A DNA stretch of 32,000 nt from Pseudarthrobacter oxydans (GTDB taxonomy: Bacteria > Actinomycetota > Actinomycetes > Actinomycetales > Micrococcaceae), in NCBI RefSeq assembly GCF_030812335.1, contig NZ_JAUSSN010000005.1, forward strand, positions 189,547 through 221,546, in the 5' to 3' direction. The translations under genes were made by a program, and so were the position numbers. Shown piece by piece: positions 3,724 through 28,066 of the stretch. Position 1 is the first letter of the stretch; each line of letters starts with the position of its first letter. The notes beneath the pieces are model-generated. The model had not been told where the DNA came from. It saw nothing but the letters and a program-made list of their open reading frames with translations, and did no database searches.

Positions 3724-3727
3724 GTGG

Positions 3728-6136: not shown

Positions 6137-6275
6137 GGGCCCAGCCTAGTAGCGGCAGGGTGAAGGTGCGGAACGCCCGCATTCCAGTTAACATTCACTA
6201 ACTAATGTTCGCGGTAAATGCGTGACGCTGCCCACAGTGTCGCGGCGGGCTCGGGTTCCACATCAAGGAGGATGC

Positions 6276-13672: not shown

Positions 13673-14449
13673 TCACCGTCCGCCGTTTTCCCGGTGCCGC
13701 GGTTCTGCGCTCTCCCCGTAGGGGACCACGACGGTCCGGCGCGCTGTGCCGCCGTCGTCATAGGGCAGGGTCCTCACCGGAACGCCGTAGAGCTCCGTGA
13801 GTGAGGTGTCCGAGAGCAGCTCTTCCGCGGGGCCGGTCACTGTTCCGCTCCGGCTCAGGAGAACAGCGCTGTCGGCCAGGTACAGGGCGTGGTCCGGGTG
13901 GTGGGTGCTCAGGAGCAGGGCCATGCCGTCGGCCATCAACTCGCGCAGGAGTGACAGGACCCGCACCTGGTTCTTGAGATCGAGCCCGGTGGCAGGCTCG
14001 TCCAGCACCAGGACGGGACAGCCCGCGGCGATGGCCCGGGCTATCAGAATGAGTTGCTGCTCGCCGCCGCTGAGGGTAGGAAACCGCCGGTTGCGCAGTC
14101 CGGGTACGCCGACCCTGTCTATCGCGTCCAGGGCGGCGGCCCGGTCCCTGGCCCCAGGTGTCCGGAAGACCCCGACCTGCCGGGCCCGCCCCATCAGGAC
14201 CATGTCCAGGGCCGTGTACCCGAACGCGCTGCCGCGGGCCTGCGGCACGTACCCGGCACCGTCGGCGCGGTGGACCGTGCCCGCCGCCGGCGCCAGCAGC
14301 CCGGCCGCGCAGCGGACCAGCGTGGTTTTGCCGCTGCCGTTCGGACCCAGCACCGCGGTGGCCGTGCCTTGCGGTACCCGGAAGCTGACGTCCCGGAAGA
14401 CCCAGTCCTGCCGGGCGTAGCCGAATCCCACACCGTCCAGCTCAAGCAC
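13673..14449 (-). CDS. Chelate-type (FecE/BtuD-class) ABC transporter ATP-binding protein
   Basis: Walker A GPNGSGKTT, signature LSGGEQQ, Walker B VLVLDEP. The start is uncertain. GTG 14449 (M-LELDGVGFGY...) overlaps the permease stop by 8 nt. The alternatives are GTG 14467 and GTG 14524. Confidence 0.85.
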   Translation of the reverse strand: MLELDGVGFGYARQDWVFRDVSFRVPQGTATAVLGPNGSGKTTLVRCAAGLLAPAAGTVHRADGAGYVPQARGSAFGYTALDMVLMGRARQVGVFRTPGARDRAAALDAIDRVGVPGLRNRRFPTLSGGEQQLILIARAIAAGCPVLVLDEPATGLDLKNQVRVLSLLRELMADGMALLLSTHHPDHALYLADSAVLLSRSGTVTGPAEELLSDTSLTELYGVPVRTLPYDDGGTARRTVVVPYGESAEPRHRENGGR

Positions 14450-15548
14450 TTTCCCAGATCCTGTCACGGTTCCGGCGCAGCAGCAGGAAGAAAACGGGGG
14501 CGCCGATAAGGGCAGTGAGGACACCCAACGGAATTTCCCCGGCGGTAAGGGTGCGGGCCACGGTGTCGACCAGGATGATGTAGGCGCCGCCGAGAAGGAA
14601 GGACACCGGCAGGAGTACCCGATGGTCCGGGCCCACCCACATCCGCGCCAGATGCGGCACTACCAGGCCCACCCAGCTGACCGCCCCGCTGACTGCCACG
14701 GCGCCGGCGACAATCAGTGCCACCGCCACCAGCACCACCCAGCGCAGGGGGCGCGGTTTGACGCCCAGGGCGGCGGCATCCTCGTCGCCCAGTGAGAGCA
14801 CGTTGATGCGCCAGCGCAGCAATAGGAGCACTGCGGTGCCGCCCAATACAGGGACCAGCGCGACGGCGACCTTGGCGTACGTCGCGGTGGACAAGCTGCC
14901 AAGCAGCCAGAAAACGATGGCTGGCAGAGTGGTGTTGGGGTCCGCGAGGTAGGTCACCAGCGCCACCAAGGCTGAAAAGAACGAACCCGTAACGACACCG
15001 CCGAGCACGATCATCAGCATCGAGGAGCCGCCGCGGCCCGATGTGATCAGGATCAGCATTACGAGGGCTGCCATGCCGAAGAAGAAAGAACCCGCGACCA
15101 GCATGAACGGCCCCAGCCCGAGCAGGAGGGCCAGCGCTCCGCCGAACGAGGCCCCCGCGGATACCCCGATGATCTCCGGGCTGACCAGGGGGTTCCGGAA
15201 GATGGCCTGCAGGGCGGCACCGCCGATCGCCAGTCCGCCGCCCACCAGCAGCCCAAGCAGGATCCGGGGAAGCCGCACGAGCAGGACGACGTTCTGCTCG
15301 GTCTCGCTGGCTTCGAGCGGGAAGGGCACGATCTGTGCGGCGAGAATTTGGACGACGTGCCACACCGGCACGTGGAACCTGCCGAGCGCCAGCGCGAGCA
15401 GTCCGGCCGCGGTCAGTACGACGGCGGCGAGGGAAACGGGCCCCAGAACGGCAAGTGTCCGGCCGCGTACTCCCGGCCCGGGCCGGTGGGCGGTCCGGCC
15501 GGCCCGCGGGCCACGGCGCTTCAGCCGCGCTGGACTGGCCTCATCCAG
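14442..15548 (-). CDS. FecCD-family ABC transporter permease (iron/cobalamin/metal-chelate class)
   Basis: Highly hydrophobic, about 9-10 TM segments, typical FecCD C-terminus ...GEIPLGVLTALIGAPVFFLLLRR. ATG 15548 overlaps the SBP stop by 8 nt (ATGCTGGATGA) and is preferred over the track start at 15656. Confidence 0.85.
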   Translation of the reverse strand: MDEASPARLKRRGPRAGRTAHRPGPGVRGRTLAVLGPVSLAAVVLTAAGLLALALGRFHVPVWHVVQILAAQIVPFPLEASETEQNVVLLVRLPRILLGLLVGGGLAIGGAALQAIFRNPLVSPEIIGVSAGASFGGALALLLGLGPFMLVAGSFFFGMAALVMLILITSGRGGSSMLMIVLGGVVTGSFFSALVALVTYLADPNTTLPAIVFWLLGSLSTATYAKVAVALVPVLGGTAVLLLLRWRINVLSLGDEDAAALGVKPRPLRWVVLVAVALIVAGAVAVSGAVSWVGLVVPHLARMWVGPDHRVLLPVSFLLGGAYIILVDTVARTLTAGEIPLGVLTALIGAPVFFLLLRRNRDRIWESA

Positions 15549-16695
15549 CATTGAACTGTTGGTAATTGGCTGAACCGCTGTTCTCCGTGACCCACAGAAT
15601 CCGGTCCAGGGCGTCCTCCGAGGGCTCCTGGCCATAAAGGAACTGGAAGTATTCACGAACTTTGCCGCGCAGCGCTGACCGTTCCTGGGGAAAAGCGACT
15701 GCCGTGAGCCAGTGCCACATGAGCGGTGATTCCTGCCCTGGGGGGTCCCAGCGGTAGCCGCCGAGGGGAACCTTGTAGACGCGCCGCGAGCGGACAGCGG
15801 AAATGGTCTGCCACACCGGGTTCGAATAGATGTCCTGGGGCATGGCCTGGTCGAAATTGCCCAGCAGGATGACCTCGGGATCCCATCTCAGGACCTGCTC
15901 CACGTCCAGGCCCACCATGCCCGAACCGGTCAACGGGTCCTGGCCGGTGGCGGGGTTGGTGCCGCCGACAAGTTTGATGTAGAAGTCGTTGTACGTATCG
16001 GCCGCCGCGGCTTTGAGCCCGCCGGTGAACCGGTTGAAGTAGAGAATGCTGGGCCCCTCGGAGCCGCGGCCAGCCGCAAGTGACGAGATTTCTTCGAGTT
16101 CCTTGTCGCTGCGGGCCTTGATTTCGGTGGCCCGCTCGGGTTTGCCAAGCATGGCGGCGAACATCGTCACCCAGGCGTCCACGTCCTCCTGTCTGCCGGT
16201 ATTTTTCAGGCCGATCACCGTCAGCCCGGCGTTCTCGAGCGGCTCGATCAGTTGGGCGTCCGACCACTGGATCACCACGTCGGGGTTCAGGGCGCGCACG
16301 CTCTCCACGTTAGGAGTGAAGTCCTGCGTCGCAATGTCGTGGGGCAGTTCCAGCGCCTGCGGAAACATGGTTCCCATGATGCCGTCACGCATCGCGACCC
16401 AGGACGCGTTATGCATGGCACCCAGATGTTCGGCACTGCGGTCGACGGCGACCAGCAGCGACGCTGCCGGCATGGGTATGGTCACTACCCTGGTGACCGG
16501 CCTGGTGAAGGTGACTGTCTTGCCGCGCTGGTCCGTGATGCTGATGCGGTCAGTTGCCGCGGAACCGGTCCCGCCGGCGGCGGGCGAGGCTGCGGGGGAG
16601 AGGCCGGATGCTCCGCACCCGGTGAGCAGGGCTGCGGATCCTCCCGCCATCAACGCCTGAAGCACCGTGCGGCGGGTTGGATCGTCGACTCGCAT
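15541..16695 (-). CDS. Periplasmic-binding-protein class III (Peripla_BP_2, FecB/BtuF/CeuE-like) substrate-binding lipoprotein
   Basis: 384 aa from ATG 16695: MRVDDPTRRTVLQALMAGGSAALLTGC-GASG (twin-Arg plus lipobox). The body is typical of chelate-binding SBPs (...DVVIQWSD..., ...DPEVILLGNF...). The upstream 300 codons of track ORF 15541..17607 are antisense to the DUF6390-like gene and are rejected. Confidence 0.85.
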   Translation of the reverse strand: MRVDDPTRRTVLQALMAGGSAALLTGCGASGLSPAASPAAGGTGSAATDRISITDQRGKTVTFTRPVTRVVTIPMPAASLLVAVDRSAEHLGAMHNASWVAMRDGIMGTMFPQALELPHDIATQDFTPNVESVRALNPDVVIQWSDAQLIEPLENAGLTVIGLKNTGRQEDVDAWVTMFAAMLGKPERATEIKARSDKELEEISSLAAGRGSEGPSILYFNRFTGGLKAAAADTYNDFYIKLVGGTNPATGQDPLTGSGMVGLDVEQVLRWDPEVILLGNFDQAMPQDIYSNPVWQTISAVRSRRVYKVPLGGYRWDPPGQESPLMWHWLTAVAFPQERSALRGKVREYFQFLYGQEPSEDALDRILWVTENSGSANYQQFNAG

Positions 16696-16733: not shown

Positions 16734-16758
16734 CCCGTTGACCAAGGGTGTCAACGGG
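16734..16758. promoter_or_regulatory. Perfect 9-bp inverted repeat in the ABC / DUF6390-like divergent promoter region (candidate operator)
   Basis: CCCGTTGAC-caagggt-GTCAACGGG. It contains TTGAC(-35-like) hexamers in both orientations. It lies 39 nt upstream of the SBP ATG and 79 nt upstream of the DUF6390-like ATG. Confidence 0.35.
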
Positions 16759-16836
16759 CCCGCGGTGCCGGGCCCCTTGTCGGGGTTCGGGGCCGGTGCT
16801 ACTTTCAGAGGACCTTGTGCAGAAGGTGGCCAGATC

Positions 16837-17610
16837 ATGATTCTTGACGGTGCCCAGTTGTTTGTCCGCTACGCCTACCCGCCCAATTCGAGGGGCAGCT
16901 GCGGGCCTCCCGACAGTGATGCGTTGTTGCATTACGGCCAGTCCGGTGTGACGGACCAAGGCCTCCGTGAACTGGCAAAAGGCTTCGCCGGGGCGTGGCC
17001 GTACCTGGAGCTGATTGCGGCCTCCACGGGAATCCGCGATCCCCTCGATTACCGCGTGGTGGAAGCCTACTGGGTGGGCAACAGCCTCCTGGACTCCGTC
17101 GGAATAACCAACATCGGCAACTCCATGGAGGACCGGTTCCGGGCCCGCACGGGACGGCAATTCCCGCACCTGGCGGAAGGGGTCCTGGCCGGCGGGGTTC
17201 CCCACCACAGTTTCCACGTCTTCGAGATCTACCCTTGGCTGGGCCTGCTCCACGATGACCGCCGCCACGCCACCGCCTTGAGTGTGCTCGACCGCTGCCG
17301 CATCCGTTGGGGCGAGGTGCTGGCGATCACCGGCGACGAGGCCGTGGTCCGGTCCCGGCCACTGGTGTGGGATGGAACCTCGCTGGCCGTCGGCGAATCC
17401 GTGGTCGAGTCCGCGAAATACGCGGTGAACGGATCCGGGTTCGTGGCCGGGCTGGCCGTGGGGGACGCGGTGTCGCTCCACTGGGATTGGGTCTGTGACC
17501 GGCTGTCCCCGCGTCAGCTGGAGCGGCTGAAGCACTTCACTGCGCGGCACCTGCGGATTGCCAACAGCGGCGTCGAACACCGCGGCGCCGCGATCGCGCT
17601 GGAACACTAG
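16837..17610 (+). CDS. Conserved hypothetical protein (DUF6390-like by recollection) with a HypC/HupF-like C-terminal module
   Basis: 257 aa from ATG 16837, preceded by GAAGGTGG at 7-nt spacing. The track start at 16738 lies inside the operator-like palindrome. MILDGAQLFVRYAYPPNSRGSCGPPDSDALL... The C-terminal part CRIRWGEVLAITGDEAVV...VGDAVSLHWDWVCDRLSPRQLER aligns by eye with HypC of this window (CLGIPGQVVELLEG...PGTWVLIHMGFALERVDPAGAER). Confidence 0.7.
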   Translation: MILDGAQLFVRYAYPPNSRGSCGPPDSDALLHYGQSGVTDQGLRELAKGFAGAWPYLELIAASTGIRDPLDYRVVEAYWVGNSLLDSVGITNIGNSMEDRFRARTGRQFPHLAEGVLAGGVPHHSFHVFEIYPWLGLLHDDRRHATALSVLDRCRIRWGEVLAITGDEAVVRSRPLVWDGTSLAVGESVVESAKYAVNGSGFVAGLAVGDAVSLHWDWVCDRLSPRQLERLKHFTARHLRIANSGVEHRGAAIALEH

Positions 17611-17621: not shown

Positions 17622-17960
17622 CTAGGGGGACTGCGGCGCGGCACTGTCCGGGTCCTCCGGAGGCTCGACCCCGGTGGAGTCGCGGGGCGAGGACCCGCCC
17701 GAGGGCCGACCGGCCGGCGTCGCGTCTGTTCCGGTTTCTCTCCGCCCGGGCTCCAAACCCTCCTGCTTAACCACGTCCTCCCCCCGCCGTGTGGTGCTCT
17801 CGCCGACGCCCTCGGGCGCCCTTGCCGCGTCTTCGGGGGTCTCGTCGGACCCTGGCTGTGCGGGTTCCTTGAGCGGCGGCTCGCTGCCAAAGGCGCGGGC
17901 TGTGCCGGGGGAGGTTCCCTCGGCGGGATCCTTGGCCTCGGGCGAATTAGTCGGTGACAT
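17622..17960 (-). CDS. Hypothetical acidic, Pro/Glu/Gly-rich, probably intrinsically disordered protein at the tail of the hydrogenase operon
   Basis: 112 aa from ATG 17960, preceded by AAGGAG at 6-nt spacing. MSPTNSPEAKDPAEGTSPGT... The strand is ambiguous. ORF 17674..17979 (+) shares the same wobble position and has equal GC3. I prefer the minus strand because of the SD, the operon context, and the implausible 20% Ser in the + ORF. Confidence 0.45.
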   Translation of the reverse strand: MSPTNSPEAKDPAEGTSPGTARAFGSEPPLKEPAQPGSDETPEDAARAPEGVGESTTRRGEDVVKQEGLEPGRRETGTDATPAGRPSGGSSPRDSTGVEPPEDPDSAAPQSP

Positions 17961-18007
17961 GATGCTCTCCTTCATCTGATTTAGGTGGGGCGCGCTCTTA
18001 GTCTGGG

Positions 18008-18265
18008 CTAGCCGGCGTCGCTGTCGGCGTCCCTGGGCCGGCCCATCAGCTCCAGCCCGCCCATGGCCCGTTCCGCGCCCGCGGGATCCACCCGTTCCAG
18101 GGCGAAGCCCATGTGGATGAGGACCCAGGTGCCCGGCTCCAGCGGCCCCTCATCCAGCAGACCGATGTTGATCTTCCGCCGTACTCCGGCCACGTCCACG
18201 AGGGCCAACTGATTGCCGTAGCCTTCGAGCAGTTCGACGACCTGGCCCGGTATTCCAAGGCACAT
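18008..18265 (-). CDS. hypC: [NiFe]-hydrogenase assembly chaperone HypC/HupF family
   Basis: 85 aa. Diagnostic N-terminus MCLGIPGQVVEL and WVLIHMGFALERVD. Confidence 0.92.
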   Translation of the reverse strand: MCLGIPGQVVELLEGYGNQLALVDVAGVRRKINIGLLDEGPLEPGTWVLIHMGFALERVDPAGAERAMGGLELMGRPRDADSDAG

Positions 18266-18317: not shown

Positions 18318-18884
18318 CTAGACGGGCGTATGCTGCGCGATCAGTTCTTCGACGGCGGCCACGGCCTGCGGTACGGCCGCCGCCACCGGGCCGGTGAGGC
18401 CGATTCCCTCGCTGAGGTCGGCGGGGACGCAGCCGACGACGTAGGTCAGGGGAAGCTCACCGCCGAGCGAGCGGAGCCGCCCCAGCACGGCAACCGGGTC
18501 CATGCCGTGCGGGTCAAGGGACGCGGCGCCGTCGAGGTCTTCCGGGCGCACCCGGAGCACCCGGATGCGTCCCGGTGCCGCCTCCGGGTCCCCGCCGGAG
18601 TCCGCGCCCGGTCCTGTGCCCGAACCCGGGGGCACGGTATCCACCAGCACCAGGACGTCGACGCCGGCCAGCAGATCGTAGGCCAGGTGCATGCCGCGGA
18701 TTCCGTAGTCCACCGCCAGCACGCCGGGCGCCGCCGCGCCTGTGGCCACGGCCAGCCGCCGGGCGACCTCCGGGCCGAACCCGTCGTCGCGCAGGAACAT
18801 GTTCCCCACGCCTGCGACGAGGACGCGGGGTAGGCGATCCGCGGTCCCTGTGGCGGGACCGCCCGGCTGGAATGGTGACGTCAC
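18318..18884 (-). CDS. hupD: Hydrogenase maturation endopeptidase (HupD/HyaD/HybD family)
   Basis: VLVAGVGNMFLRDDGFGPEVARRL...VLVLVDTV...LDPHGMDP... (GxGNxxxxDDGxG, D, H metal ligands). The start is set at GTG 18884, which overlaps the TGA of the 39-aa ORF (GTGA). The longer track ORF (to 19193) is rejected. Confidence 0.85.
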   Translation of the reverse strand: MTSPFQPGGPATGTADRLPRVLVAGVGNMFLRDDGFGPEVARRLAVATGAAAPGVLAVDYGIRGMHLAYDLLAGVDVLVLVDTVPPGSGTGPGADSGGDPEAAPGRIRVLRVRPEDLDGAASLDPHGMDPVAVLGRLRSLGGELPLTYVVGCVPADLSEGIGLTGPVAAAVPQAVAAVEELIAQHTPV

Positions 18885-19000
18885 ATTCGCCGCATTTTCA
18901 GGTAGCGCTGGATATCGGGGACCGACCGAATCCCGGCGTATACGGCCGCCAGTGTCAGCGCCACGAGCAGGCCGACCGTGGCCATTCCTACTGTTTTCAT
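18881..19000 (-). CDS. 39-aa single-pass membrane micro-protein (absent from the ORF track; DUF6893-like by recollection)
   Basis: Hand translation gives MKTVGMATVGLLVALTLAAVYAGIRSVPDIQRYLKMRRM*. ATG 19000-18998 overlaps the TGA of the upstream 461-aa gene (ATGA), and its own TGA overlaps the hupD GTG (GTGA). It has one hydrophobic helix plus a basic C-tail. Confidence 0.6.
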   Translation of the reverse strand: MKTVGMATVGLLVALTLAAVYAGIRSVPDIQRYLKMRRM

Positions 19001-20382
19001 TGCGGGTCTTCCTCTCCATCCTCAAGCGGTTCAAGTTCTTCGGGTGCGTAGTAGAAGGACCGGCCGTAGCCTTCATGGAGGTCCGCGGCAGGGTCCTTTT
19101 CAAGCACCAGGCCCACGTGGGTGCTGCCATCGACGTCGAAGTGCACACTGGTGACCCGCCCGGTCTGCCCGGCGAAGAAGAGGTCCTGCGCATCGGCGCG
19201 CCGGCTCGGGTTCACCCTGACCCGGCTGCCGCGGGCCACCGGAACGCCGTTGATCAGAACGGCATCCAGGGACGGCTGGACGAGGGCTTCGGATTCCGGC
19301 GTCCACCAGGCGGGCGGGTCCCCTCCGCTGCCGGCGGCGCTTCCGCGGATGTCCGGGAATTCCACGGCGTGGGGATTGCGCAGGATCCCGTGCAGCTGCT
19401 GCAGTTCCTCCGGTGACATGGCCTCGCAATGGTCGATGATCGCGGCCGCGCGGGGATCGGTGGCGCGGGCCTCGGATTTTTCTTCCTCGGTCAGGGTCAG
19501 CACCCGCAAGGTGAGGATCTCGTCAATTTCGGTGGAATCATAGAGTGCCACCGGGCTTTCCGGGGCCACCGCGGGGTGGTCGTAGAGAATGATCGGCGAG
19601 ACCAGCAGCACGTCCGTCTGCCCTTCGGGACCGGCGAGGACGGGCCAGCAGCGGTGCTGCGAGCAGTCCGCAACGGCGTCCTGCGCCCATCCTGGCGGGT
19701 CCAGCAGGGAGAGGAAATCCGCGTCCCGCAGGCTGAGGAGCACGTGGGCGCCGATGAAGGACGCGGCGATGGCGTCCTGCCGGTTCCCCGGCTCCGCAGC
19801 GGGCTCCGCGGTGTTGGCGACGGAAACCCGTAACCGCTGGAGGCCGCGGGTCAGGCCGGTGGAGTCCAGCGTGAGTTCCCCGCGGAGCGCGTGGCGGCGC
19901 CGCACCAACCTGCCTGCCGTCCGGCCGGTGCCGTCGCCGAGGTCCTCAATCTCCTCGCTCGCCGGGATCTCCACCGGCAGCTGCAGCGCTTCCCGGGCCA
20001 GCTCCGCCACCGGAAACGGCCCCAGGGTGATCTCCTGTTCCACCGCCTCGTCCCAGCTCAGCCAGCGGGAGGCTCCGATGGTGAGTTCCGCCACCGGGCT
20101 GAAGTTCCCGGCGTCGTCCGCTTTTTCGGCGGTGCGGGTCTGCAACTGCAGGAAGCGCAGGTGGATTTCCACATCCGCGTGCGGTCCGGGACTCAGTAGG
20201 CAGTCGGCGGACATTGCCGGTTCCTCCCCGGCGCCGGCTTCCGCGGCCCCGGGCGGCCCGAGGATTCCAAACTGCCAGCGGGCCTGGTTCTTCTGCGAGG
20301 AAGCCCGGTAGGGGTACAGCAGGTAACCCTCGTAGAGGACGGCGTCGGCGACTGCCCTGGCCAGGCTCAGGCTCATGGTCAT
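18997..20382 (-). CDS. Conserved hypothetical protein of the hydrogenase operon, 461 aa, function unknown
   Basis: From ATG 20382 (ATGA overlap with the upstream stop): MTMSLSLARAVADAVLYEGYLLYPYRASSQKNQARWQFGILGP... with an acidic C-terminus ...YYAPEELEPLEDGEEDPQ. The N-terminal 135 codons of track ORF 18997..20787 are off-frame read-through of the upstream gene. Confidence 0.75.
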   Translation of the reverse strand: MTMSLSLARAVADAVLYEGYLLYPYRASSQKNQARWQFGILGPPGAAEAGAGEEPAMSADCLLSPGPHADVEIHLRFLQLQTRTAEKADDAGNFSPVAELTIGASRWLSWDEAVEQEITLGPFPVAELAREALQLPVEIPASEEIEDLGDGTGRTAGRLVRRRHALRGELTLDSTGLTRGLQRLRVSVANTAEPAAEPGNRQDAIAASFIGAHVLLSLRDADFLSLLDPPGWAQDAVADCSQHRCWPVLAGPEGQTDVLLVSPIILYDHPAVAPESPVALYDSTEIDEILTLRVLTLTEEEKSEARATDPRAAAIIDHCEAMSPEELQQLHGILRNPHAVEFPDIRGSAAGSGGDPPAWWTPESEALVQPSLDAVLINGVPVARGSRVRVNPSRRADAQDLFFAGQTGRVTSVHFDVDGSTHVGLVLEKDPAADLHEGYGRSFYYAPEELEPLEDGEEDPQ

Positions 20383-21035
20383 GGGAGCCGCTCTCCGCCC
20401 ACACCCGTCGCCGCAGCAGACAGCAGGGACTCCACCGTGGCCTCCCAGGACGTCAGTCCGCGCACCGCCTTGTACTGCGACAGGGCGGCCAGAGCATCCC
20501 GGTCCAGCCTGATCCAGCCCGCATTGGGGAAATACTGGTCCATCAGCCGGTGCCACGCCGCCACCGGGAGGCGGTACGAGGCTTCGAGGTGCCACGGGAC
20601 CTGCTCCACCCCGAATCCTGCCGGGCCTTTCGTGAAGACGGTGCCGGAGAACAGCAGCTCCAGCGGGATTTCGCCGTCCCGGAGGGCGTGCAGGTACTTC
20701 GACGCGGCGACGTCGAAGTCGAACGTGCAGGGCAGCGGCAGGTCCGCTTCGGTGCTGTCCGTGAATCCCTGCACCATGGTGCTGCACTGCAGCCAGAGGA
20801 ACGACTTAAGCGTGGTGGGCCAGCGGCCGCGCTCGCCGAACAGGTCCAGGAGCCCGCGTTCCTCCTCGTCCGCATATCCGCGGCGCTGCGGCAGGATCCG
20901 CACCTGGCAGCGCAATGCGATGGCGTGGATGGTGGCGCCGGTGGACTCGGTCAGCCGGAGCCGGGCGGTCAGTTGCGGCGCCGCGGCGTAGGGCTCCGGC
21001 TGGATGTCGACGACGGCGAACGTCAGTTCGGTCAT
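20379..21035 (-). CDS. Conserved hypothetical protein of the hydrogenase operon, 218 aa (DUF6084-like by recollection)
   Basis: From ATG 21035, preceded by GGGAGGA and overlapping the upstream stop (ATGA): MTELTFAVVDIQPEPYAAAPQLTARLRLTESTG... Confidence 0.75.
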   Translation of the reverse strand: MTELTFAVVDIQPEPYAAAPQLTARLRLTESTGATIHAIALRCQVRILPQRRGYADEEERGLLDLFGERGRWPTTLKSFLWLQCSTMVQGFTDSTEADLPLPCTFDFDVAASKYLHALRDGEIPLELLFSGTVFTKGPAGFGVEQVPWHLEASYRLPVAAWHRLMDQYFPNAGWIRLDRDALAALSQYKAVRGLTSWEATVESLLSAAATGVGGERLP

Positions 21036-21742
21036 GGGGATCCTCCCGCCAGGGATTGGCTTTTGTCCTCCGGCGCGGGCCGGCTGCGGCTGTCCAGCCG
21101 GGCGAAAAACGCGGTGAGTTGCTCGCGGGCCTCCTGTCCGCCGTCGAACCCGCGCCAGAGGCGGCGGAGCTGCCCCACGAGTTCGTAGCAGGCGTCCACG
21201 GGGACCAGATGGCAGTCGGCGCGGGATCGGTCCGGTCCGGGGCCGCGGATCAGCAGCGCCTCCGTGTCCGGTGCCGCCAGCGCAAGCGCCGGGTTTTGTG
21301 CCAGCACCGTGGCCCAGGCGCCCAGCGGAAGCTCGGACTCGGTGGCGCCGGCGGGGCCCGGGTAGAAGGCGACGGTCCGGTCCAGTTTGGAACTGTGGAA
21401 GAAGAATGCCAGTCCCACCGGAATTTCCAGCTCGTCCCACTGGCCGGGGCCCAGTTCAAAATCGGGAAAGGACAGGTACCGGTCCGGCACCGAACGGTAG
21501 CGCAGATGCGCCGTGGCGTCAGTGAACAGGAGGTAGCACGGCCGGCACGTGCACATCATGGCATGGCTCTCCAGGTCGACAATGTGCTGATGTTCCTCCG
21601 GAATGGGTTCCCCGCACATCTCGCAGCGCTCGCCGGCGGGCGGCGCGGGTGGGCGGGCCGCGATCCGGCGCAACAGGGTGACCGGCAGCCCGCCGGGGGC
21701 GGTCCGGCCCCGGCCGGTCTCGGTGCTGCCTCCGGGATTCAT
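21032..21742 (-). CDS. Conserved Cys-motif protein of the hydrogenase operon, 236 aa (DUF5947-like by recollection)
   Basis: MNPGGSTETG...GERCEMCGEPIPEEHQHIVDLESHAMMCTCRPCYLLF... (CxxC-19 aa-CxCxxC). ATG 21742 directly abuts the hhyE stop (TGAATG). Confidence 0.75.
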   Translation of the reverse strand: MNPGGSTETGRGRTAPGGLPVTLLRRIAARPPAPPAGERCEMCGEPIPEEHQHIVDLESHAMMCTCRPCYLLFTDATAHLRYRSVPDRYLSFPDFELGPGQWDELEIPVGLAFFFHSSKLDRTVAFYPGPAGATESELPLGAWATVLAQNPALALAAPDTEALLIRGPGPDRSRADCHLVPVDACYELVGQLRRLWRGFDGGQEAREQLTAFFARLDSRSRPAPEDKSQSLAGGSP

Positions 21743-22708
21743 TCAGGCGTCCTGGCCGGAAACCATCGGCACGGCCACGGACATCACGCCGGACCGTACC
21801 AGGAGCGGCAGCGGATCCAGGTGCAGGTTCCGGTCCTCCAGGCAGCTCCCGGCCTGCCGAACGTCGAAATGGGCGCGGCAGGAGGGGCAGCGCAGCAGGC
21901 CGCCGCCCGCGGGTGCCGCGAGGGCACGCTGGAGGGTGGCGCCGGCCATCGACGCCGTGCAGCGCGGGCAGTAGTCGCGGTAGGCGTAGACGTCCTGCCC
22001 GGTCCGGCAGGCGAGCACCGGGTACCCGCCGACAAGGAAGCCGGCGACGTCGCCGGGTTCCAGCCCGGCAATCTCCGGCACGGGCTCCCAGGATCCGGCG
22101 GCATGCTCGTGCCAGCGGCCGGCATCGCCCGGGCCGTGGCCTGCCGCGCCATCGGCCGGGTGGTTCAGCCGGATTAGCAGCGCGTCCACCGGAATCACGG
22201 CCGGAACTGCCGGACGGGATTCCTCCTCGACCACCTCGATGGCCGTGACCTCCGGCGCGGCTGACTCGATCGCCTCCTCGACGGCGAACTTGAGCGTGAC
22301 CGACGACGAGGGGCAGCCCTGGCAGGTGCCGAGCAGCCTCAGCCGCACGACCCCCGCGGGGCTGATGTCCAGGAGTTCCACGTTGCCGCCGTGCGAGCCG
22401 AGGTAGGGACGGACACTGTCCAGCGCGGCAGCCACCCGTGTTTCGACGTCCTGCGGGTGCAGCCCGTGGATCACCAGCAGGCTGGAGACCAGCTCGTCGG
22501 CGGTCAGCGCGTCCAGCGTCCCGCCGTCCAGTTGCCCGCGGTCATCGAGGATTTCCAGGATCCGGGCGAGCCCGGAACCGTAGAGTTCCGTCACCTGGCG
22601 GACCAGTTCCTCGGCGCGCCCGCGGGCCACCGCCCCGCCGGCTCCGAGGGCGTCGAGGAGGCTTTCGATCCGGTCGCCGGCCTGCGGCGGCCGGTCCTCG
22701 CCAGGCAT
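21743..22708 (-). CDS. hhyE: Putative iron-sulfur protein HhyE-type: Nfu/NifU C-terminal domain fused to a Rieske-fold-like domain
   Basis: 321 aa from ATG 22708, 5 nt after the hhyL stop. Nfu module VRPYLGSHGGNVELLDI...LLGTCQGCPSSSVTLKFAVEEAI. C-terminal module ...VLACRTGQDVYAYRDYCPRCTASM...LLRCPSCRAHFDVR. It occupies the same position after the large subunit as the mycobacterial HhyE/HucE genes. Confidence 0.85.
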   Translation of the reverse strand: MPGEDRPPQAGDRIESLLDALGAGGAVARGRAEELVRQVTELYGSGLARILEILDDRGQLDGGTLDALTADELVSSLLVIHGLHPQDVETRVAAALDSVRPYLGSHGGNVELLDISPAGVVRLRLLGTCQGCPSSSVTLKFAVEEAIESAAPEVTAIEVVEEESRPAVPAVIPVDALLIRLNHPADGAAGHGPGDAGRWHEHAAGSWEPVPEIAGLEPGDVAGFLVGGYPVLACRTGQDVYAYRDYCPRCTASMAGATLQRALAAPAGGGLLRCPSCRAHFDVRQAGSCLEDRNLHLDPLPLLVRSGVMSVAVPMVSGQDA

Positions 22709-22713
22709 GGCTG

Positions 22714-24507
22714 CTATTCGCCGGTCAGTGTCTGGGTGGGGGAGTGCAGCTTCTGCAGGGTCTGGCCGTTGCCCAGATACATATGCACCCCGCAGGGCAG
22801 GCAGGGGTCGAAGCTGCGGACGGTGCGCATGATGTCGATGCCCTTGAAGTGCTCGCGGTCGTTCTCCTCGAAGATCGGCTGCCCCTGGACGGCGTCCTCG
22901 TAGGGGCCGGCGGTTCCGGCGGAGTCCGTGGGGCTGGCGTTCCAGGGGGTCGGCGGGTAGGGATGGTAGTTGGCGATCTTCCCGTCGCGGATCACCATGT
23001 GGTGGGATAGGACGCCCCGCACGGCCTCTGTGAATCCGCAGCTGATGGCTTCGTCCGGAACCTCGAAGCTCTCCCACGTCTTGGTGCGCCCGGCGCGGAT
23101 CTCCTCGAGTGCCTTCTCCGCGAAGTGCAGTGCGGCGGCGGCGGCGTAGGCCTGGAAGTAGGTGCGGGCCCGGTTGCGTTCCAGGGTGTTGCTCCACTGC
23201 GGGATGTTCCACTCGAAGGAAACAGGACCTTTCAGCGCGGTCTTGGGCAGGTTGATCTGGACGCTCCGGCCGGTGGCCTTGATGTAGCCGATGTCCACCA
23301 GGCCGGCGAGCGCCGTCGCCCAGAGGCGGGCCAGCGGGCCGCCGCCGGTGTCCAGTGCCAGGTTGTCCTGGCCGTCAAACCAGCGCGGCGACATCACCCA
23401 GCTGTATTTCTCTGCGAGGTCCCGCTTTTGCGGCCGCGGGTTGGTGTGCTGGTTCCAGGGATGCCGGCGGTCCACGGGATTGCCCAGCGGATCGTGGGTC
23501 ACAAACATTTCCTGGCCTTCCCAGTCCTCATAGTAGGAGGAACCGAGCATGATCCGGATGCCCAGGTTGATCCGCACCAGGTCGGTAGTGACGAGTTTGC
23601 CGTCCACCACAACGCCGGGCGTGACGAACATCTTCCGGCCCCACTCGGTCATGTCCTTGTACTCGAAGTTGCAGTAGTCGGGATCCTGGAGCGAGCCCCA
23701 GCAGCCCAGCAGCGTGCGCCGCAGCCCCACCTGTTCGTAGCCCGGCAGGGCCTCGTAGAAGAAGTCGAACAGGTCGTCATGCATGGGGACGACCTTCTTC
23801 ATGAACTCCACGTAGCGCATGAGCCGGGTGATGTAGTCCGTCATCAGCTGGATGGTGGCAACCGTTCCCACTCCGCCCGGGTAAAGCGTGGACGGGTGAA
23901 CGTGGCGGCCCTCCATGAGGCAGAACATTTCGCGGGTTGCCCGGCTGACCTGCAGCGCCTCGCGGTAGAACTCCCCGGTGAACGGGTTGAGCGACCGCAT
24001 GATGTCGGCGATGGTCCGGTAGCCGTGGTCACCCTCATGCGGTGCACGGGTGTTCTCGGCCTTGGCCAGCACCCCGGGGTTCGTCTCCGAGACCATCTTT
24101 TCGCAGTAGTCGACGCCGACGAGGTTTTCCTGGAAGATGTTGTGGTCGAACATGTACTCGGCGGCTTCGCCGAGGTTCACGATCCATTCGCCGAGGTTTG
24201 GCGGCTTGACGCCGTAGGCCATGTTCTGGGCGTAGCAGGAGCATGTGGCGTGGTTGTCCCCGCAGATCCCGCAGATCCGGCTGGTGATGAAGTGCGCGTC
24301 CCGCGGGTCCTTGCCCTTCATGAAGATGGAGTATCCGCGGAAGATCGAGGAGGTGCTCTTGCACTCCACCACCTGTTTGTTCGCAAAGTCGATCTTGGTG
24401 TAGATGCCGAGGCTGCCGACGATCCTCGTGATGGGGTCCCACGCCATCTCCACCAGATTGTTGTCACCTGTTCCGCTTCCGGAAGGCATTGGAATCGTTG
24501 AGGTCAT
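22714..24507 (-). CDS. hhyL: [NiFe]-hydrogenase large subunit, group 1h (formerly group 5, high-affinity Hhy type)
   Basis: 597 aa. L1 motif TSRICGICGDNHA and L2 motif SFDPCLPCGVH, followed by the 22-aa tail MYLGNGQTLQKLHSPTQTLTGE, which is the protease substrate. ATG 24507 with AGGTGA at 5-nt spacing is preferred over GTG 24516. Confidence 0.97.
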   Translation of the reverse strand: MTSTIPMPSGSGTGDNNLVEMAWDPITRIVGSLGIYTKIDFANKQVVECKSTSSIFRGYSIFMKGKDPRDAHFITSRICGICGDNHATCSCYAQNMAYGVKPPNLGEWIVNLGEAAEYMFDHNIFQENLVGVDYCEKMVSETNPGVLAKAENTRAPHEGDHGYRTIADIMRSLNPFTGEFYREALQVSRATREMFCLMEGRHVHPSTLYPGGVGTVATIQLMTDYITRLMRYVEFMKKVVPMHDDLFDFFYEALPGYEQVGLRRTLLGCWGSLQDPDYCNFEYKDMTEWGRKMFVTPGVVVDGKLVTTDLVRINLGIRIMLGSSYYEDWEGQEMFVTHDPLGNPVDRRHPWNQHTNPRPQKRDLAEKYSWVMSPRWFDGQDNLALDTGGGPLARLWATALAGLVDIGYIKATGRSVQINLPKTALKGPVSFEWNIPQWSNTLERNRARTYFQAYAAAAALHFAEKALEEIRAGRTKTWESFEVPDEAISCGFTEAVRGVLSHHMVIRDGKIANYHPYPPTPWNASPTDSAGTAGPYEDAVQGQPIFEENDREHFKGIDIMRTVRSFDPCLPCGVHMYLGNGQTLQKLHSPTQTLTGE

Positions 24508-24533
24508 GTTCTTCACCTGTCTGGAAGTGGGTG

Positions 24534-25592
24534 CTACCAGGTGCGCCGGGCACCGGTAAGGAGCTCAGTACCGGGCCGGCGCCACTTGGGCTCCTGGTCC
24601 AGGGTGTGGGTGGTGATTCCACGCAGCGCCCTGATGGCCGAACCGTACGGGCGGATGGTGTTCGTTGAGAGCTTTCCGCCGGGAGGCTCATCCATAAAGG
24701 GCATGAACTTGTCCGGGAACCCCGGCATGGTGCAGCCGATGCAGATGCCGCCGACATTCGGGCAGCCGCCGACGCCGTTCATCCAGCCGCGTTTGGGGAC
24801 GTTGCACTTGACCACCGGGCCCCAGCAGCCGAGCTTGACGATGCATTTGGGGGAGCCATACTCGGTGGCGAAGTCACCCTGTTCGTAGTAGCCGGCCCGG
24901 TCACACCCCTCATGAACAGTCTGGCCGAAAAGCCACGTGGGCCGCAGTGCGTCGTCCAGCGGAATCATCGGCGCCTGGCCGGTGGCCTGATAGAGCAGGT
25001 AGGTCATTGTTTCGGAGAGATTGTCCGGCTGGATCGGGCACCCCGGAACGCAGACGATGGGGATCCCCGCCTTGGACTTCCAGTTGTAGCCGAGGTAATC
25101 CGGCACGCCCATGGCCCCGGTGGGGTTTCCCGCCATCGCGTGGATGCCGCCGTAAGTGGCGCAGGTCCCCGCCGCGATGATGGCGGTGGCCTTGGGGGCC
25201 AGGCGGTCGAGCCATTCGCTGGTCGTGATCGGCTGGCCGGTCTCGAGGTCGTTCCCGAATCCGCACCAGTAGCCGCCGGGGGCGTGGAGCTTTTCGTTGG
25301 GGATGGACCCCTCCACCACGAGGACAAACGGCTCCAGTTCGCCGCGGTCCGCCTTGCGGAACCACTCCAGGAAGTCGTCGGCCCCTTCCTGCGGTCCGCA
25401 TTCGAAGTCGATCAGGGGCCAATGCATGGCAATGCGCGGCAGGCCGGGCAGGGCGCCGAGGGCTATCTCCTCGACGCTGGGCTGCGTGGCCGCCGTCAGG
25501 GCCACAGAATCGCCGTCGCAGCTGAGCCCTGCGTTGATCCACAGCACATGGATAAGGGTTTCTTCGGCCTTCAGAGAAGTTTCAGTAGGCAT
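24534..25592 (-). CDS. hhyS: [NiFe]-hydrogenase small subunit, group 1h, without a Tat signal
   Basis: 352 aa. MPTETSLKAEETLIHVLWINAGLSCDGDSVALT... begins directly at the conserved core with no RRxFxK leader. Multiple FeS Cys motifs are present (GTCATYGG, CPIQPD, CIGCTMPGFPD). Confidence 0.95.
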   Translation of the reverse strand: MPTETSLKAEETLIHVLWINAGLSCDGDSVALTAATQPSVEEIALGALPGLPRIAMHWPLIDFECGPQEGADDFLEWFRKADRGELEPFVLVVEGSIPNEKLHAPGGYWCGFGNDLETGQPITTSEWLDRLAPKATAIIAAGTCATYGGIHAMAGNPTGAMGVPDYLGYNWKSKAGIPIVCVPGCPIQPDNLSETMTYLLYQATGQAPMIPLDDALRPTWLFGQTVHEGCDRAGYYEQGDFATEYGSPKCIVKLGCWGPVVKCNVPKRGWMNGVGGCPNVGGICIGCTMPGFPDKFMPFMDEPPGGKLSTNTIRPYGSAIRALRGITTHTLDQEPKWRRPGTELLTGARRTW

Positions 25593-25614: not shown

Positions 25615-26463
25615 TTAGGGGCTCAGTGTGTCCGTCAAAGATCCAGTCAAAGTGGCTGACCGGGAACTGGTTCCGCCGAGCCAGTCATACCAGCCGGCGA
25701 GGCCATCGCCGGTGGTGGCCGAAAGGACCAGGAAATCGGTGCGCGGATTGAGCTGACGGGCCCTGCGCCGGAACCCGTCGACGTCGAAATCAACGTAGGG
25801 GAGCAGATCCGACTTGTTGATGATCACCAGATCGGCTGCCCTGAACATGTGCGGGTATTTCTGCGGCTTGTCATCACCTTCCGTCACGGAAACGACTACT
25901 ACTTTCGCTGCTTCGCCGAGGTCAAACAGGGCGGGGCAGACCAGGTTGCCCACGTTCTCGATGAACACCGTGGACCCGGTTCCGGGATCCAGGGCGTCCA
26001 GCCCCCGCCGGAGCATGTCGGCGTCCAGATGGCAGCCGGCACCGGTGTTGATCTGGACGACGGGCCGTCCCACCGCACGGATGCGGTCCGCGTCCAGGGA
26101 CGTCTCCTGATCGCCCTCGACGACGCCGGCCTGCAACCGCTCGCCCAGGTCGGCGAGGGTGCGGACCAGCAGCGTGGTCTTGCCCGCCCCCGGGGAGCTC
26201 ATCACGTTCAGCGCGCGGATTCCCCGGCCTTCCAGCCAGCCCCGGTTCCTCGCCGCGAGCAGCTCGTTTTTCGCGAGCAGGCTCTGTTCCAGCGGGATGG
26301 TTTCCGGGTTGTGAACGTGCGGGTGCTCGTGGTCCGGACCGTGGTCGTGTGTGTGCCCGTGGGAATGGTCGTGCGGGTGCACGGGCAGCGGTGCGCTTGA
26401 GGATTCCTGCAGTGTGGAAACCCTGACGTTCGTTTCGTCGCCGCATCCGCATGTTGTACACAC
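25615..26463 (-). CDS. hypB: Hydrogenase nickel-incorporation GTPase HypB
   Basis: N-terminal MCTTCGCG high-affinity metal site, His-rich tract HPHDHSHGHTHDHGPDHEHPHVH, and P-loop SSPGAGKTTLL. GTG start with GGAGGTGG upstream. Confidence 0.95.
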   Translation of the reverse strand: MCTTCGCGDETNVRVSTLQESSSAPLPVHPHDHSHGHTHDHGPDHEHPHVHNPETIPLEQSLLAKNELLAARNRGWLEGRGIRALNVMSSPGAGKTTLLVRTLADLGERLQAGVVEGDQETSLDADRIRAVGRPVVQINTGAGCHLDADMLRRGLDALDPGTGSTVFIENVGNLVCPALFDLGEAAKVVVVSVTEGDDKPQKYPHMFRAADLVIINKSDLLPYVDFDVDGFRRRARQLNPRTDFLVLSATTGDGLAGWYDWLGGTSSRSATLTGSLTDTLSP

Positions 26464-26466
26464 TTG

Positions 26467-26796
26467 CTACGCCACCTCCACCGACATCAGCATGAGTTCG
26501 CGGCCGCTGAGGATTTCGACGTCGGCGCTTCCGCAGGGACACAGCAGGATCAGGTCGGCCGGTTCGAACTCGTCGTGGCAGTTTCTGCACCGGGCCAGGC
26601 CGCGCGGTTCGTCGATCATCAACTGGGCGCCGTCCAGAGGGGTGCCCGCGGATGCGACGTCGAAGCAGAAGCGCATTGCATCCGGGAGAACACCGGACAG
26701 GGGGCCCACCTGCACGTTGACCGCAATGACTTTCCGCTCGCCGGTTCGGTCGAGGACGGCTTCAACAAGGCTCTGGGTAATAGAGAGTTCGTGCAT
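26467..26796 (-). CDS. hypA: Hydrogenase nickel insertion protein HypA
   Basis: 109 aa from ATG 26796, preceded by GGAAGGAG. MHELSITQSLVEAVL (MHE nickel site) and zinc motifs CRNCHDEF...CPCGS. The rest of track ORF 26467..27123 is rejected. Confidence 0.92.
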   Translation of the reverse strand: MHELSITQSLVEAVLDRTGERKVIAVNVQVGPLSGVLPDAMRFCFDVASAGTPLDGAQLMIDEPRGLARCRNCHDEFEPADLILLCPCGSADVEILSGRELMLMSVEVA

Positions 26797-26815
26797 GGCG
26801 GCACTCCTTCCTGCC

Positions 26816-26844
26816 AAGATAGGCGCGGGCCAGATAAAACACAA
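26816..26844 (-). promoter_or_regulatory. Candidate sigma-70-type promoter for the hypA-hypB-hhySL operon
   Basis: The minus strand reads TTGTGT (26844-26839), 17 nt, TATCTT (26821-26816), about 20 nt before the hypA ATG. Identified by pattern only. Confidence 0.3.
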
Positions 26845-26932
26845 CCACCCGAAGTTACGCGGGCGTATACTGCCGCTAAAGCGGCCATGCCGACGCGGCA
26901 GCGGGACCGCAAGGGGAACCCGAGGCTGGATC

Positions 26933-28066
26933 ATGGAGCAACCGGAGGTTACGCGCCAGGGCCGAATCCGCGGCGCGCGCAGTGCCCTTTCAGGCCGGGA
27001 GTGGGCATCGGTCGGCGGAATGGTCATGTTCGTCGCTTTCCTCCACGTCCTGGGCTGGGGCGTCCTGGCCGGGGTGGCGGACCCGCGAAACGTCCCCGTC
27101 GGTTCCACCGGAGTCTTTGGCATCGGCCTCGGCGTAGCCGCCTACACGCTGGGCCTGCGCCACGCATTCGACGCCGACCACATCGCCGCGATCGACAACA
27201 TCACCCGCAAGCTCCGTGCCGATGGCAAGCGCAGCATGTCCGTGGGTTTCTGGTTTTCGCTGGGCCACTCGAGCATAGTGTTCGGCCTGTGCGCGCTGCT
27301 GGCGGCCGGAATCCGCAGCCTGGCGGACCCGGCCGCCGAGGGAACGTCGGAGCTCCATTCCTTTCTGGGCCTGGTGGGCACCACAGTCTCCGGCGTGTTC
27401 CTGGTGGGCATCGGCGTCCTGAACCTGGTGGTGCTGCGGGGCATTATCCGGTCCGTAGCGCGGATGCGGAAGAGTGAAGAATCCGGGGCAGACCTGGCAG
27501 GGCAGGGGCCCCCGCCGGGTGTGCTGTACCGGGTGTTCGGCCGGGTCACACGGCTGGTGACCCGTCCGTGGCACGTGTACGGCGTCGGACTGCTGTTCGG
27601 GCTCGGCTTCGACACCGCCACCGAGGTCAGCCTCCTGATTCTGGCCGGCGGCGCCGCGGCTTCCGCACTGCCCTGGTACGCGATCATGACGCTGCCCGTG
27701 ATCTTTGCCGCGGGGATGAGCCTGCTGGACTCCCTGGACGGGTGCCTCATGAACTTCGCCTACGGCTGGGCCGTGTCCCGGCCGGTCCGCCGGATCTATT
27801 ACAACATCGTCATAACGGCGCTGTCGGTGGCCGTGGCACTGGGCATCGGCTCCATCGAACTGGTGTCAATCCTCGTGGAACGGGCCGGGATCAGCACGGG
27901 CCCGCTGTCCGCAATCGGCGGCATCGACCTGGACTCGGTGGGGTACACGGTTGTCGCCCTGTTCCTGGGCACCTGGGTGCTGGCCATGGGGGTGTGGCGG
28001 TTCGGCCATATTGAGGAACGCTGGACGGCTCCGGTGAGGAACCCCGACCCCGGCACTGGTGGCTAG
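26933..28066 (+). CDS. hoxN: Nickel/cobalt permease, NiCoT family (HoxN/HupN/NixA)
   Basis: 377 aa from ATG 26933. NiCoT signature LRHAFDADHIAAIDN in TM2, plus FLGLVGT..., LFGLGFDTATE. Divergent from hypA. Confidence 0.92.
   Translation: MEQPEVTRQGRIRGARSALSGREWASVGGMVMFVAFLHVLGWGVLAGVADPRNVPVGSTGVFGIGLGVAAYTLGLRHAFDADHIAAIDNITRKLRADGKRSMSVGFWFSLGHSSIVFGLCALLAAGIRSLADPAAEGTSELHSFLGLVGTTVSGVFLVGIGVLNLVVLRGIIRSVARMRKSEESGADLAGQGPPPGVLYRVFGRVTRLVTRPWHVYGVGLLFGLGFDTATEVSLLILAGGAAASALPWYAIMTLPVIFAAGMSLLDSLDGCLMNFAYGWAVSRPVRRIYYNIVITALSVAVALGIGSIELVSILVERAGISTGPLSAIGGIDLDSVGYTVVALFLGTWVLAMGVWRFGHIEERWTAPVRNPDPGTGG

Follow-up and report, generated by a model that had tools for sequence, protein, structure and literature searches.

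What do the three genes between hhyE and hupD do for the [NiFe]-hydrogenases of group 1h? The question is raised by a locus of Pseudarthrobacter oxydans in a 32,000-nucleotide stretch of DNA (contig NZ_JAUSSN010000005.1, positions 189,547 to 221,546), called the window below and numbered from its first nucleotide. According to the papers cited here, much of the atmospheric H2 taken up by soils is consumed by group 1h (also called group 5, or Hhy-type) hydrogenases, which support bacterial persistence as well. The solved group 1h structure (PDB 5AA5) covers the HhyS/HhyL core alone, and the three genes, hhaA, hhaB and hhaC (hhaABC), are the only universally syntenic genes of these loci still without a role. 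They bear on the assembly of group 1h enzymes in air and on the handover of electrons to the respiratory chain, and their role is also relevant to heterologous production of O2-insensitive hydrogenases. The outcome is valuable whichever hypothesis wins. We found that hhaABC are specific to group 1h loci, and that HhaC is naturally fused to the maturation endopeptidase HupD and HhaB to HhaC. Based on these results we tentatively suggest a role in assembly of the enzyme.

The window carries a known, uncharacterized gene set

The open reading frames (ORFs) of the window and their translations place hhyE, hhaA, hhaB, hhaC, a gene for a 39-amino-acid peptide and hupD in an uninterrupted chain:

21743-22708, minus strand: hhyE, NifU-like and Rieske-like protein (Pfam NifU, E 4e-22; Rieske_2, E 3e-5)
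21032-21742, minus strand: hhaA, 236 aa, DUF5947 (Pfam PF19372), homologue of PHG067 and MSMEG_2717
20379-21035, minus strand: hhaB, 218 aa, DUF6084 (Pfam PF19562), homologue of PHG068
18997-20382, minus strand: hhaC, 461 aa, without a Pfam family, homologue of PHG069
18881-19000, minus strand: DUF6893 peptide, 39 aa (Pfam PF21833, E 6e-13)
18318-18884, minus strand: hupD, [NiFe]-hydrogenase maturation endopeptidase, 188 aa (TIGR00072, E 4e-28; Pfam HycI)

An initial annotation, made from the DNA sequence alone, had described this chain. Its gene lengths and all of its junctions are present on the minus strand: TGAATG at 21745-21740, ATGA at 21035-21032, 20382-20379 and 19000-18997, and GTGA at 18884-18881. 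It had also spoken of start/stop overlaps throughout, which holds except between hhyE and hhaA, where the genes abut with a 0-nt gap and no overlap.

The family labels that the initial annotation had given for the first two proteins were confirmed by Pfam, for which the gathering score of both families is 25 bits. HhaA matched DUF5947 with 248.7 bits (E 3.6e-74; residues 39-219 on profile positions 1-176 of 177) and HhaB matched DUF6084 with 319.3 bits (E 1.3e-95; residues 1-210 on profile positions 1-210 of 213). HhaC had zero family matches in Pfam and NCBIfam. Homologues are numerous: at least 8000 for HhaC in a 90%-clustered collection, and 7783 for HhaA. Of the 50%-identity representatives, 3883 matched HhaC at E <= 1e-3, and 1131 of these still did so at E <= 1e-30. 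Sequence and profile searches found no related solved structure in the PDB for any of the three proteins, and by profile-profile comparison they are mutually unrelated. None matched a known [NiFe] maturation family (HypA-F, HupF/HypC, HupH/HyaF, HyaE, HybE, HupK) in Pfam or NCBIfam at E <= 0.01. These families were also absent from the weak Pfam matches of 56 HhaC and 71 HhaA homologues, where Phage_TAC_7 appeared in 7/56 HhaC homologues and zf-dksA_traR in 14/71 HhaA homologues, neither significantly. No profile search gave a characterized family, in agreement with the description of the three as conserved proteins without assignable function.

The genes had further been proposed as an undescribed system, which they are not. 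They were named hhaABC in Thermomicrobium, without characterization (PMC6776052), and they are PHG067-069 of Cupriavidus necator (PMC4377017, PMC6883350) and the equivalents of MSMEG_2717-2715. All these sets follow hhyE, or a NifU-like gene, and precede hupD; they share the short overlaps and, for the first two genes, the Pfam families, so the window trio is a further instance of a known, uncharacterized gene set. Window HhaC is 35.6% identical to its counterpart on the C. necator plasmid pHG1 over residues 10-445 (95% of its length; tblastn, E 2e-52), and the matching gene is flanked by the DUF6084 gene and the protease gene. The window is high in GC. Its nearest relatives belong to Arthrobacter and Pseudarthrobacter; the homologue from Arthrobacter sp. 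PsM3 has 90% identity to the 461-aa HhaC.

hhaABC are specific to group 1h hydrogenase loci

In our comparisons hhaABC were confined to group 1h loci, where hhyE lies on one side of them and hupD on the other. We compared 162 related loci, which include Actinomycetota and Alpha- and Betaproteobacteria. A scan of genome collections gave 590 HhaC relatives, of which the best 80 loci were analyzed, and a further 80 loci came from metagenomes, scanned with a fusion protein as query. In nearly all testable cases the order was hhyS-hhyL-hhyE-hhaA-hhaB-hhaC-hupD-hypC. The following counts cover only loci with enough flanking sequence to be testable:

HhyS: 63/63 genome loci, 17/17 metagenome loci
HhyL: 64/64 genome loci, 23/23 metagenome loci
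Group 1h L1/L2 motifs: 64/64 genome loci, 23/23 metagenome loci, and 2/2 in a further testable set
HhyE: 74/74 genome loci, 33/33 metagenome loci
HhaA: 76/76 genome loci, 43/43 metagenome loci
HhaB: 78/78 genome loci, 53/54 metagenome loci
HupD: 74/74 genome loci, 50/52 metagenome loci
HypC: 73/73 genome loci, 33/35 metagenome loci

The 4-nt start/stop overlap was kept at 48/78 hhyE-hhaA, 67/80 hhaA-hhaB and 67/82 hhaB-hhaC junctions, and hypC lies 1-4 nt downstream of hupD in most loci. Because they recur in 162 independent loci, this gene order and these overlaps are far beyond chance.

The window has the remaining genes of this order as follows:

24534-25592, minus strand: hhyS, group 1h [NiFe]-hydrogenase small subunit, 352 aa (ORF and translation)
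22714-24516, minus strand: hhyL, group 1h large subunit, 600 aa (L1/L2 motifs; 1070 bits to HofG of PDB 5AA5)
18008-18265, minus strand: hypC, 85 aa (Pfam HupF_HypC, E 3e-22)

In HhyL the L1 motif is TSRICGICGDNH and the L2 motif is SFDPCLPCGVH, followed by a 22-residue C-terminal extension; both motifs are quoted as group 1h signatures (PMC5364354).

Plasmids gave the same picture. The annotated order on pHG1 is small subunit, large subunit, NifU family protein, DUF5947 protein, DUF6084 protein, 476-aa hypothetical protein and maturation protease, with an overlap of 1-8 nt at each junction from the large subunit through the protease. A Methylocystis parvus plasmid has the identical order. pHG1 encodes four hydrogenases (PMC4377017), and it carries a single copy of HhaC. 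Of the records in a plasmid database, 13 have a group 1h-like HhyL (at least 73% identity), and HhaC occurs in exactly these 13. This reciprocal match, with the near-complete synteny, bears out a specific association with group 1h loci, as the reading in the initial annotation requires.

The synteny also bears on whether the genes serve the hydrogenase at all. A hitch-hiking defence or regulatory module inside the operon could account for a weak Foldseek match of the HhaC model to the DISARM protein DrmA (7s9v_A, E 1.8e-5, template-modelling (TM) score 0.20) and for the weak Phage_TAC_7 matches noted above. However, the association with group 1h is complete or nearly so across the 162 loci, PADLOC gave zero matches, the DrmA superposition (root-mean-square deviation (rmsd) 21 Å at that TM score) is at noise level, and HhaC is fused to HupD, as described below. 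A function unrelated to the hydrogenase is therefore very improbable.

Two records concern the taxonomic source of these loci. A metagenome-assembled genome (MAG) labelled Candidatus Sericytochromatia (L013) has an actinobacterial-type locus, and the HhaC tree places it with Mycobacterium. A protein attributed to Burkholderia sp. RS01 (P0048) is 72% identical to Arthrobacter HhaC. Either case points to an error of binning or contamination, or to horizontal transfer in the recent past.

Natural gene fusions join HhaC to HupD and HhaB to HhaC

Ten unusually long proteins, taken from the 150 best HhaC-family representatives, were examined. Seven of the ten (606-682 aa, in separate 50%-identity clusters) consist of a complete HhaC, a linker of 3-45 residues and a complete HycI/HupD domain, with the SH3-like domain of HhaC (see below) immediately preceding HupD. 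Several of these clusters have members of independent origin, such as JGI contigs together with an NCBI Acidimicrobiaceae MAG. On the JGI contigs L083, L086, L087 and L092 an uninterrupted single ORF covers HhaC and HupD. The fusion on L086 is ORF 2611-4656, at a locus that also encodes the 3' end of HhyL, HhyE, HhaA, HhaB and HypC. The HhaC-HupD fusion occurs in several lineages, and in a neighbor-joining tree fused and unfused proteins are interspersed, which suggests that it arose repeatedly.

HhaB and HhaC are fused in P0368, a protein of 765 aa whose cluster has 28 members from four sources, mostly full length. Together, the HhaC-HupD and HhaB-HhaC fusions are new evidence on hhaABC and make an association of HhaB, HhaC and HupD likely; the mechanism that we infer is set out in the next section. 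To this extent the initial proposal of a physical assembly stands. The fixed stoichiometry that it had drawn from the tight gene coupling is not implied by that coupling alone, because the chain continues into hupD and hypC, which encode catalytic maturation factors, so that tight spacing is not proof of a structural complex.

Apparent HhaA-HhaB and HhyE-HhaA fusions were rejected as probable indel artefacts. A search seeded with the supposed fusion from L070 found about 50 proteins with both PF19372 and PF19562, plus a NifU and DUF5947 protein of Mycolicibacterium agri. Nearly all of these proteins were found on single ENA contigs, and many of the contigs are very long. Two proteins of the set P0416-P0500 and P0507, namely P0416 and P0507, were read residue by residue for frameshifts; frame-shifted stretches take the place of the conserved C-termini, and in P0416 "LVGRLRTPVARVRRWTG..." stands where "RLWRGFDGG" is expected. 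The set as a whole probably represents indel artefacts or pseudogenes and calls for caution in the use of domain-architecture databases.

A possible role in assembly and maturation

HupD-type proteases act once, on the nickel-loaded precursor of the large subunit, and the mature enzyme does not include them. Since HhaC is fused to a protein with so transient a role, the trio is drawn towards maturation or assembly and away from a permanent electron-transfer module. Three further results are consistent with maturation. First, outside the Micrococcaceae, HhaA, HhaB and HhaC are 54-59% identical to the window proteins, compared to 51% for HupD, 55% for HypB and 52% for HhyE, and a median of 86% for HhyS and HhyL; the trio thus diverges at the rate of the maturation factors and not of the structural subunits. 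Second, neither 5AA5, the only group 1h structure found, nor any other PDB chain contains anything resembling HhaA, HhaB or HhaC. Third, the gene chain runs on into hupD and hypC.

Based on these results we favor, tentatively and with somewhat less than even confidence, the notion that the hhaABC products form a soluble cytoplasmic scaffold for assembly and maturation, specific to group 1h and outside the electron path of the mature enzyme. HhaB and HhaC would hold unprocessed HhyL, or the pair of large and small subunits, and would position HupD to cleave off the 22 residues that extend the C-terminus of HhyL, once nickel has been inserted. HhaA would bind a metal, perhaps through a Zn/Fe(Cys)4 knuckle and a second Cys/His site and perhaps together with the NifU-like HhyE, and might deliver a cofactor or protect it from redox damage while the enzyme matures in air. 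The scaffold would dissociate last, leaving HhyS and HhyL. The endopeptidase link gives a direct experimental handle on hhaABC, namely processing of HhyL.

Several points weigh against this scaffold. Adjacent overlapping genes fuse easily, and a fusion indicates association, not function. The trio has no homology to any known maturation factor in Pfam, NCBIfam or the census of weak matches. The invariant Cys/His cluster of HhaA (see below) suits a redox or electron-carrier role equally well, and the structural models of HhaC and HhaA are weakest exactly where conservation peaks. In Thermomicrobium roseum hhaABC are on the putative structural operon and were induced 5.5-fold, less than the structural genes (12.6-fold) and more than the maturation genes (3.1-fold). 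Finally, the genome of Methylacidiphilum fumariolicum SolV is reported to be without hha homologues (PMC7174314, PMC5364354). It has contiguous hhyS-hhyL-hupD and its group 1h enzyme is active, high-affinity and membrane-associated (PMC5364354, PMC7174314); therefore hhaABC are not universally required.

The Cys/His cluster of HhaA

HhaA contains a conserved cluster of potential metal ligands:

21536-21625, minus strand: HhaA ligand cluster C40-x2-C43-x7-H51-x-H53-x10-C64-x-C66-x2-C69, invariant in the alignment

One more invariant Cys, C185, lies outside this segment. All eight residues (C40, C43, H51, H53, C64, C66, C69 and C185) were invariant in 79/79 HhaA sequences, two proteobacterial ones included. 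The initial annotation had seen this motif with a central spacing of 19 aa; the motif is present, and the spacing is CxxC-20 aa-CxCxxC. By sequence it would amount to two knuckles of the rubredoxin or zinc-ribbon type (C40xxC43 and C66xxC69, 22 residues apart) plus four more potential ligands. The outside similarity of HhaA was limited to a weak match to C4 zinc fingers (zf-dksA/traR) at the first CxxC. No rubredoxin family was found among the Pfam matches of HhaA homologues. Pfam likewise gave no ferredoxin or Fer4 match for HhaA, and judging from the sequence its eight invariant Cys and His residues could still bind Fe or an Fe-S cluster. In the AlphaFold2 (AF2) model the C-terminal alpha/beta domain has a predicted local distance difference test (pLDDT) score of 84-95 and the Cys-rich region has 37-46, so geometry there is unreliable. 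Foldseek found no relative of the HhaA model in the PDB (top E-value 0.06).

This cluster is one reason to consider an electron-relay and membrane-docking module. Electrons would pass from HhyS, directly or through HhyE, to HhaA as a redox protein with Cys-ligated Fe or Fe-S; HhaB and HhaC would serve as its scaffold and the DUF6893 peptide as tether, together a functional counterpart of HucM. The ligands are invariant from Actinobacteria to Proteobacteria. For the R. eutropha enzyme PHG067 was put forward as electron acceptor; MSMEG_2717 has been named as a candidate acceptor, and group 1h loci have no cytochrome b subunit (PMC6883350). Hypothetical proteins of the Pyrinomonas operon have also been proposed to serve electron flow (PMC7174314). 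The gene chain includes a conserved one-helix peptide, and in T. roseum hhaABC share one putative operon with hhySL. On the other hand, a permanent subunit is hard to square with fusion of HhaC to a transiently acting protease. HhaA, HhaB and HhaC have no transmembrane segment, the proteobacterial loci do without the DUF6893 peptide, the Cys motif and Pfam matches of HhaA are not of the ferredoxin type and reach only as far as weak C4 zinc-finger similarity, and the trio diverges like maturation factors. Moreover, the membrane-associated, high-affinity SolV enzyme comes from a genome reported without hha genes (PMC7174314). We regard such a module as rather unlikely. Its fullest version is unlikely too: HhaABC and the DUF6893 peptide would be the physiological electron exit and membrane tether, with a new Cys/His redox center in HhaA, a scaffold of novel fold in HhaB and HhaC, and HupD fusions that reflect co-assembly of the whole complex. 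Thus, of the two roles that the initial annotation had put forward, O2-tolerant maturation is favored by the HupD fusions, and electron transfer with docking is weakened by the missing transmembrane segments, the absence from the PDB and the divergence rate.

One HhaA has an unusual form of this region. In the Rhodococcus yunnanensis locus L075 (ORF start at about 8600), tandem 'HKRTCICE...' repeats insert about 100 residues between the first CxxC and HxH, and with them many extra Cys residues within the metal-binding region.

Predicted domains of HhaC

HhaC is strongly acidic (73 D+E versus 35 K+R). The conserved segment near its start and the acidic C-terminal tail, both pointed out in the initial annotation, were borne out, and two domains were apparent in the AF2 model:

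20305-20334, minus strand: HhaC motif YEGYLLYPYR, residues 17-26 (at least 95% identical in 83 sequences)
19663-20265, minus strand: HhaC central beta-sandwich-like domain, residues about 40-240 (AF2 pLDDT 80-94)
19018-19269, minus strand: HhaC C-terminal SH3-like domain, residues about 372-455 (Foldseek match to PetP)

Within the motif, E18, G19, L22, P24 and Y25 were invariant in a diverse set of sequences (A2). Foldseek gave no convincing PDB match for the beta-sandwich. The SH3-like domain of the model matched PetP (2n5u and 7r0w_V) with probability 1.0, TM scores of 0.65-0.78 and rmsd of about 2 Å, and CarS (2kss) gave a weak sequence match to HhaC (E 0.0097). PetP is an accessory subunit of cytochrome b6f; its likeness and that of CarS are limited to about 80 residues of HhaC, a small common fold and 12-20% identity. 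Judging from this model, the C-terminal domain is probably a protein-binding adaptor. The most conserved stretches of HhaC (YEGYLLYPYR, ILYDHP and DSTEIDEILTLR) were predicted with low confidence. Low confidence of this kind is common in segments that fold upon binding a partner, and the shallowness of the alignment may also contribute. Neither HhaC nor HhaA or HhaB has a transmembrane segment, with no hydrophobic stretch above a hydrophobicity (KD19) of 1.26.

These features could also be those of a stable, non-catalytic partner of the mature enzyme with neither a maturation nor an electron-transfer role. Such a partner might serve as a scaffold for oligomerization or as a cap that protects the enzyme, or it might stabilize Hhy during storage or hibernation in dormant, starved, O2-exposed cells. 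A large, very acidic protein with a predicted beta-sandwich and SH3-like adaptor would suit protein-protein contacts, as would conserved segments that the model leaves disordered in HhaC alone. Group 1h enzymes are expressed in starvation and persistence, and hhaABC are co-induced. However, homologues are absent from the PDB, 5AA5 included, the purified SolV enzyme consists of HhyL and HhyS only (PMC7174314), the HupD fusions indicate a processing step, and the invariant metal ligands of HhaA would be left without a role. We therefore consider a stable partner of this kind quite doubtful.

The DUF6893 peptide and variation of HhyE

The 39-aa DUF6893 peptide is the sole membrane-capable product of the gene chain, with one hydrophobic helix (KD19 2.09) and a basic C-terminal ...SVPDIQRYLKMRRM tail. 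We compared it in the window and in loci L001-L080 and L140-L160. The tail is conserved as (R/V)S(I/L/V)PD(I/A)xRY(L/M)(K/R)xRxM, with its last residue directly at the stop codon. Most actinobacterial loci have the peptide, usually in the order hhaC-peptide-hupD; in L140-L142, L146 and L151-L153 its gene follows hupD. The C. necator and Methylocystis loci (L081 and L082) do not have it.

HhyE differs in the same two proteobacterial loci. There it is short (192 aa in L081, ORF 6112-6690; 159-174 aa in L082, ORF 6195-6719) and has no Rieske domain, with GKHAS or CSNPI in place of the NifU CxxC. In these loci HhaA keeps its invariant Cys/His ligands. Since these HhyE proteins are without the Rieske domain and the NifU CxxC, a putative Fe-S role of HhyE is not universal. 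Apart from the DUF6893 peptide and the Rieske domain of HhyE, both added in actinobacterial loci, we found no essential difference between the hha loci of Actinobacteria and those of C. necator and Methylocystis.

In the window, we read the start of hhyE as the ATG at 22708, 5 nt past the TAG stop of hhyL. A 489-aa ORF at 21743-23212 from a mechanical listing was rejected as hhyE since it runs into hhyL.

Comparison with accessory proteins of other hydrogenases

Group 1d Hox/Hup hydrogenases, like those of group 1h, have class-specific extra genes beside the structural genes and the endopeptidase gene (HoxL, O, Q, R, T, V; HupF-K; HyaE, HyaF), whose products are needed for assembly in air (PMC6883350). 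By analogy, the role we propose for hhaABC would be functionally comparable to that of these accessories, including HoxR. Judging from their sequence, the CxxCG...CxxC knuckles of HhaA resemble those of a rubredoxin or zinc ribbon; HoxR/HupI is the rubredoxin of group 1d. hhaABC have no sequence or profile similarity to the group 1d families. In addition, group 1h small subunits have no twin-arginine translocation (Tat) signal for chaperones of the group 1d type to bind; the translated N-terminus of window HhyS, as read, has none.

The group 2a hydrogenase Huc also has an accessory protein encoded with an enzyme for atmospheric H2. HucM has 189 residues, forms a C-terminal coiled-coil tube, co-purifies with the enzyme, and provides oligomerization and membrane contact in place of cytochrome b (PMC10017518). 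In contrast, HhaC is predicted to be beta-rich and SH3-like, the C-terminal domain of HhaA is predicted to be alpha/beta, and no amphipathic tube is apparent; models, hydrophobicity and PDB searches set the hha proteins apart from HucM. They differ as well from cytochrome b anchors of the HyaC/HoxZ type: no transmembrane helices were found in HhaA, HhaB or HhaC, and the 39-aa peptide has one.

Other genes in the window

Upstream of hhyS are two further maturation genes:

26467-27123 (the ORF that contains it), minus strand: hypA (Pfam HypA, E 3e-29)
25615-26463, minus strand: hypB (Pfam cobW/HypB, E 9e-24)

Among those window ORFs that were compared with Pfam, none matched hypD, hypE or hypF. 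A high-affinity nickel transporter of the NicO type (about 27120-28066, plus strand; E 3e-82; the match covers residues 258-546 of ORF 26351-28066) diverges from hypA, a position that fits nickel supply to the hydrogenase. An ABC importer of the Fe-siderophore/cobalamin type adjoins the cluster at 13673-16590 (minus strand), with an ABC ATPase, a FecCD permease and a Peripla_BP_2 binding protein.

Between hhaC and hypC and beyond, the locus varies. The peptide gene is separated from hupD by an extra 640-730 nt in L010, L011, L023, L030, L045, L057, L068 and L077. The stretch was examined in L010, where ORF 11598-12107 has an acidic low-complexity part similar to that of a 117-aa ORF of the window; this ORF (17622-17975, minus strand), downstream of hypC, is acidic, rich in Pro, Glu and Ser and of low complexity, with similarity only in four close relatives. 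Just past the end of the hydrogenase cluster, in convergent orientation, lies a gene for a DUF6390 protein (16738-17610, plus strand; E 6e-91). DUF6390 homologues were within 10 kb of hhaC in 65/80 genome loci, at varying positions, and the gene may be another uncharacterized gene associated with group 1h.

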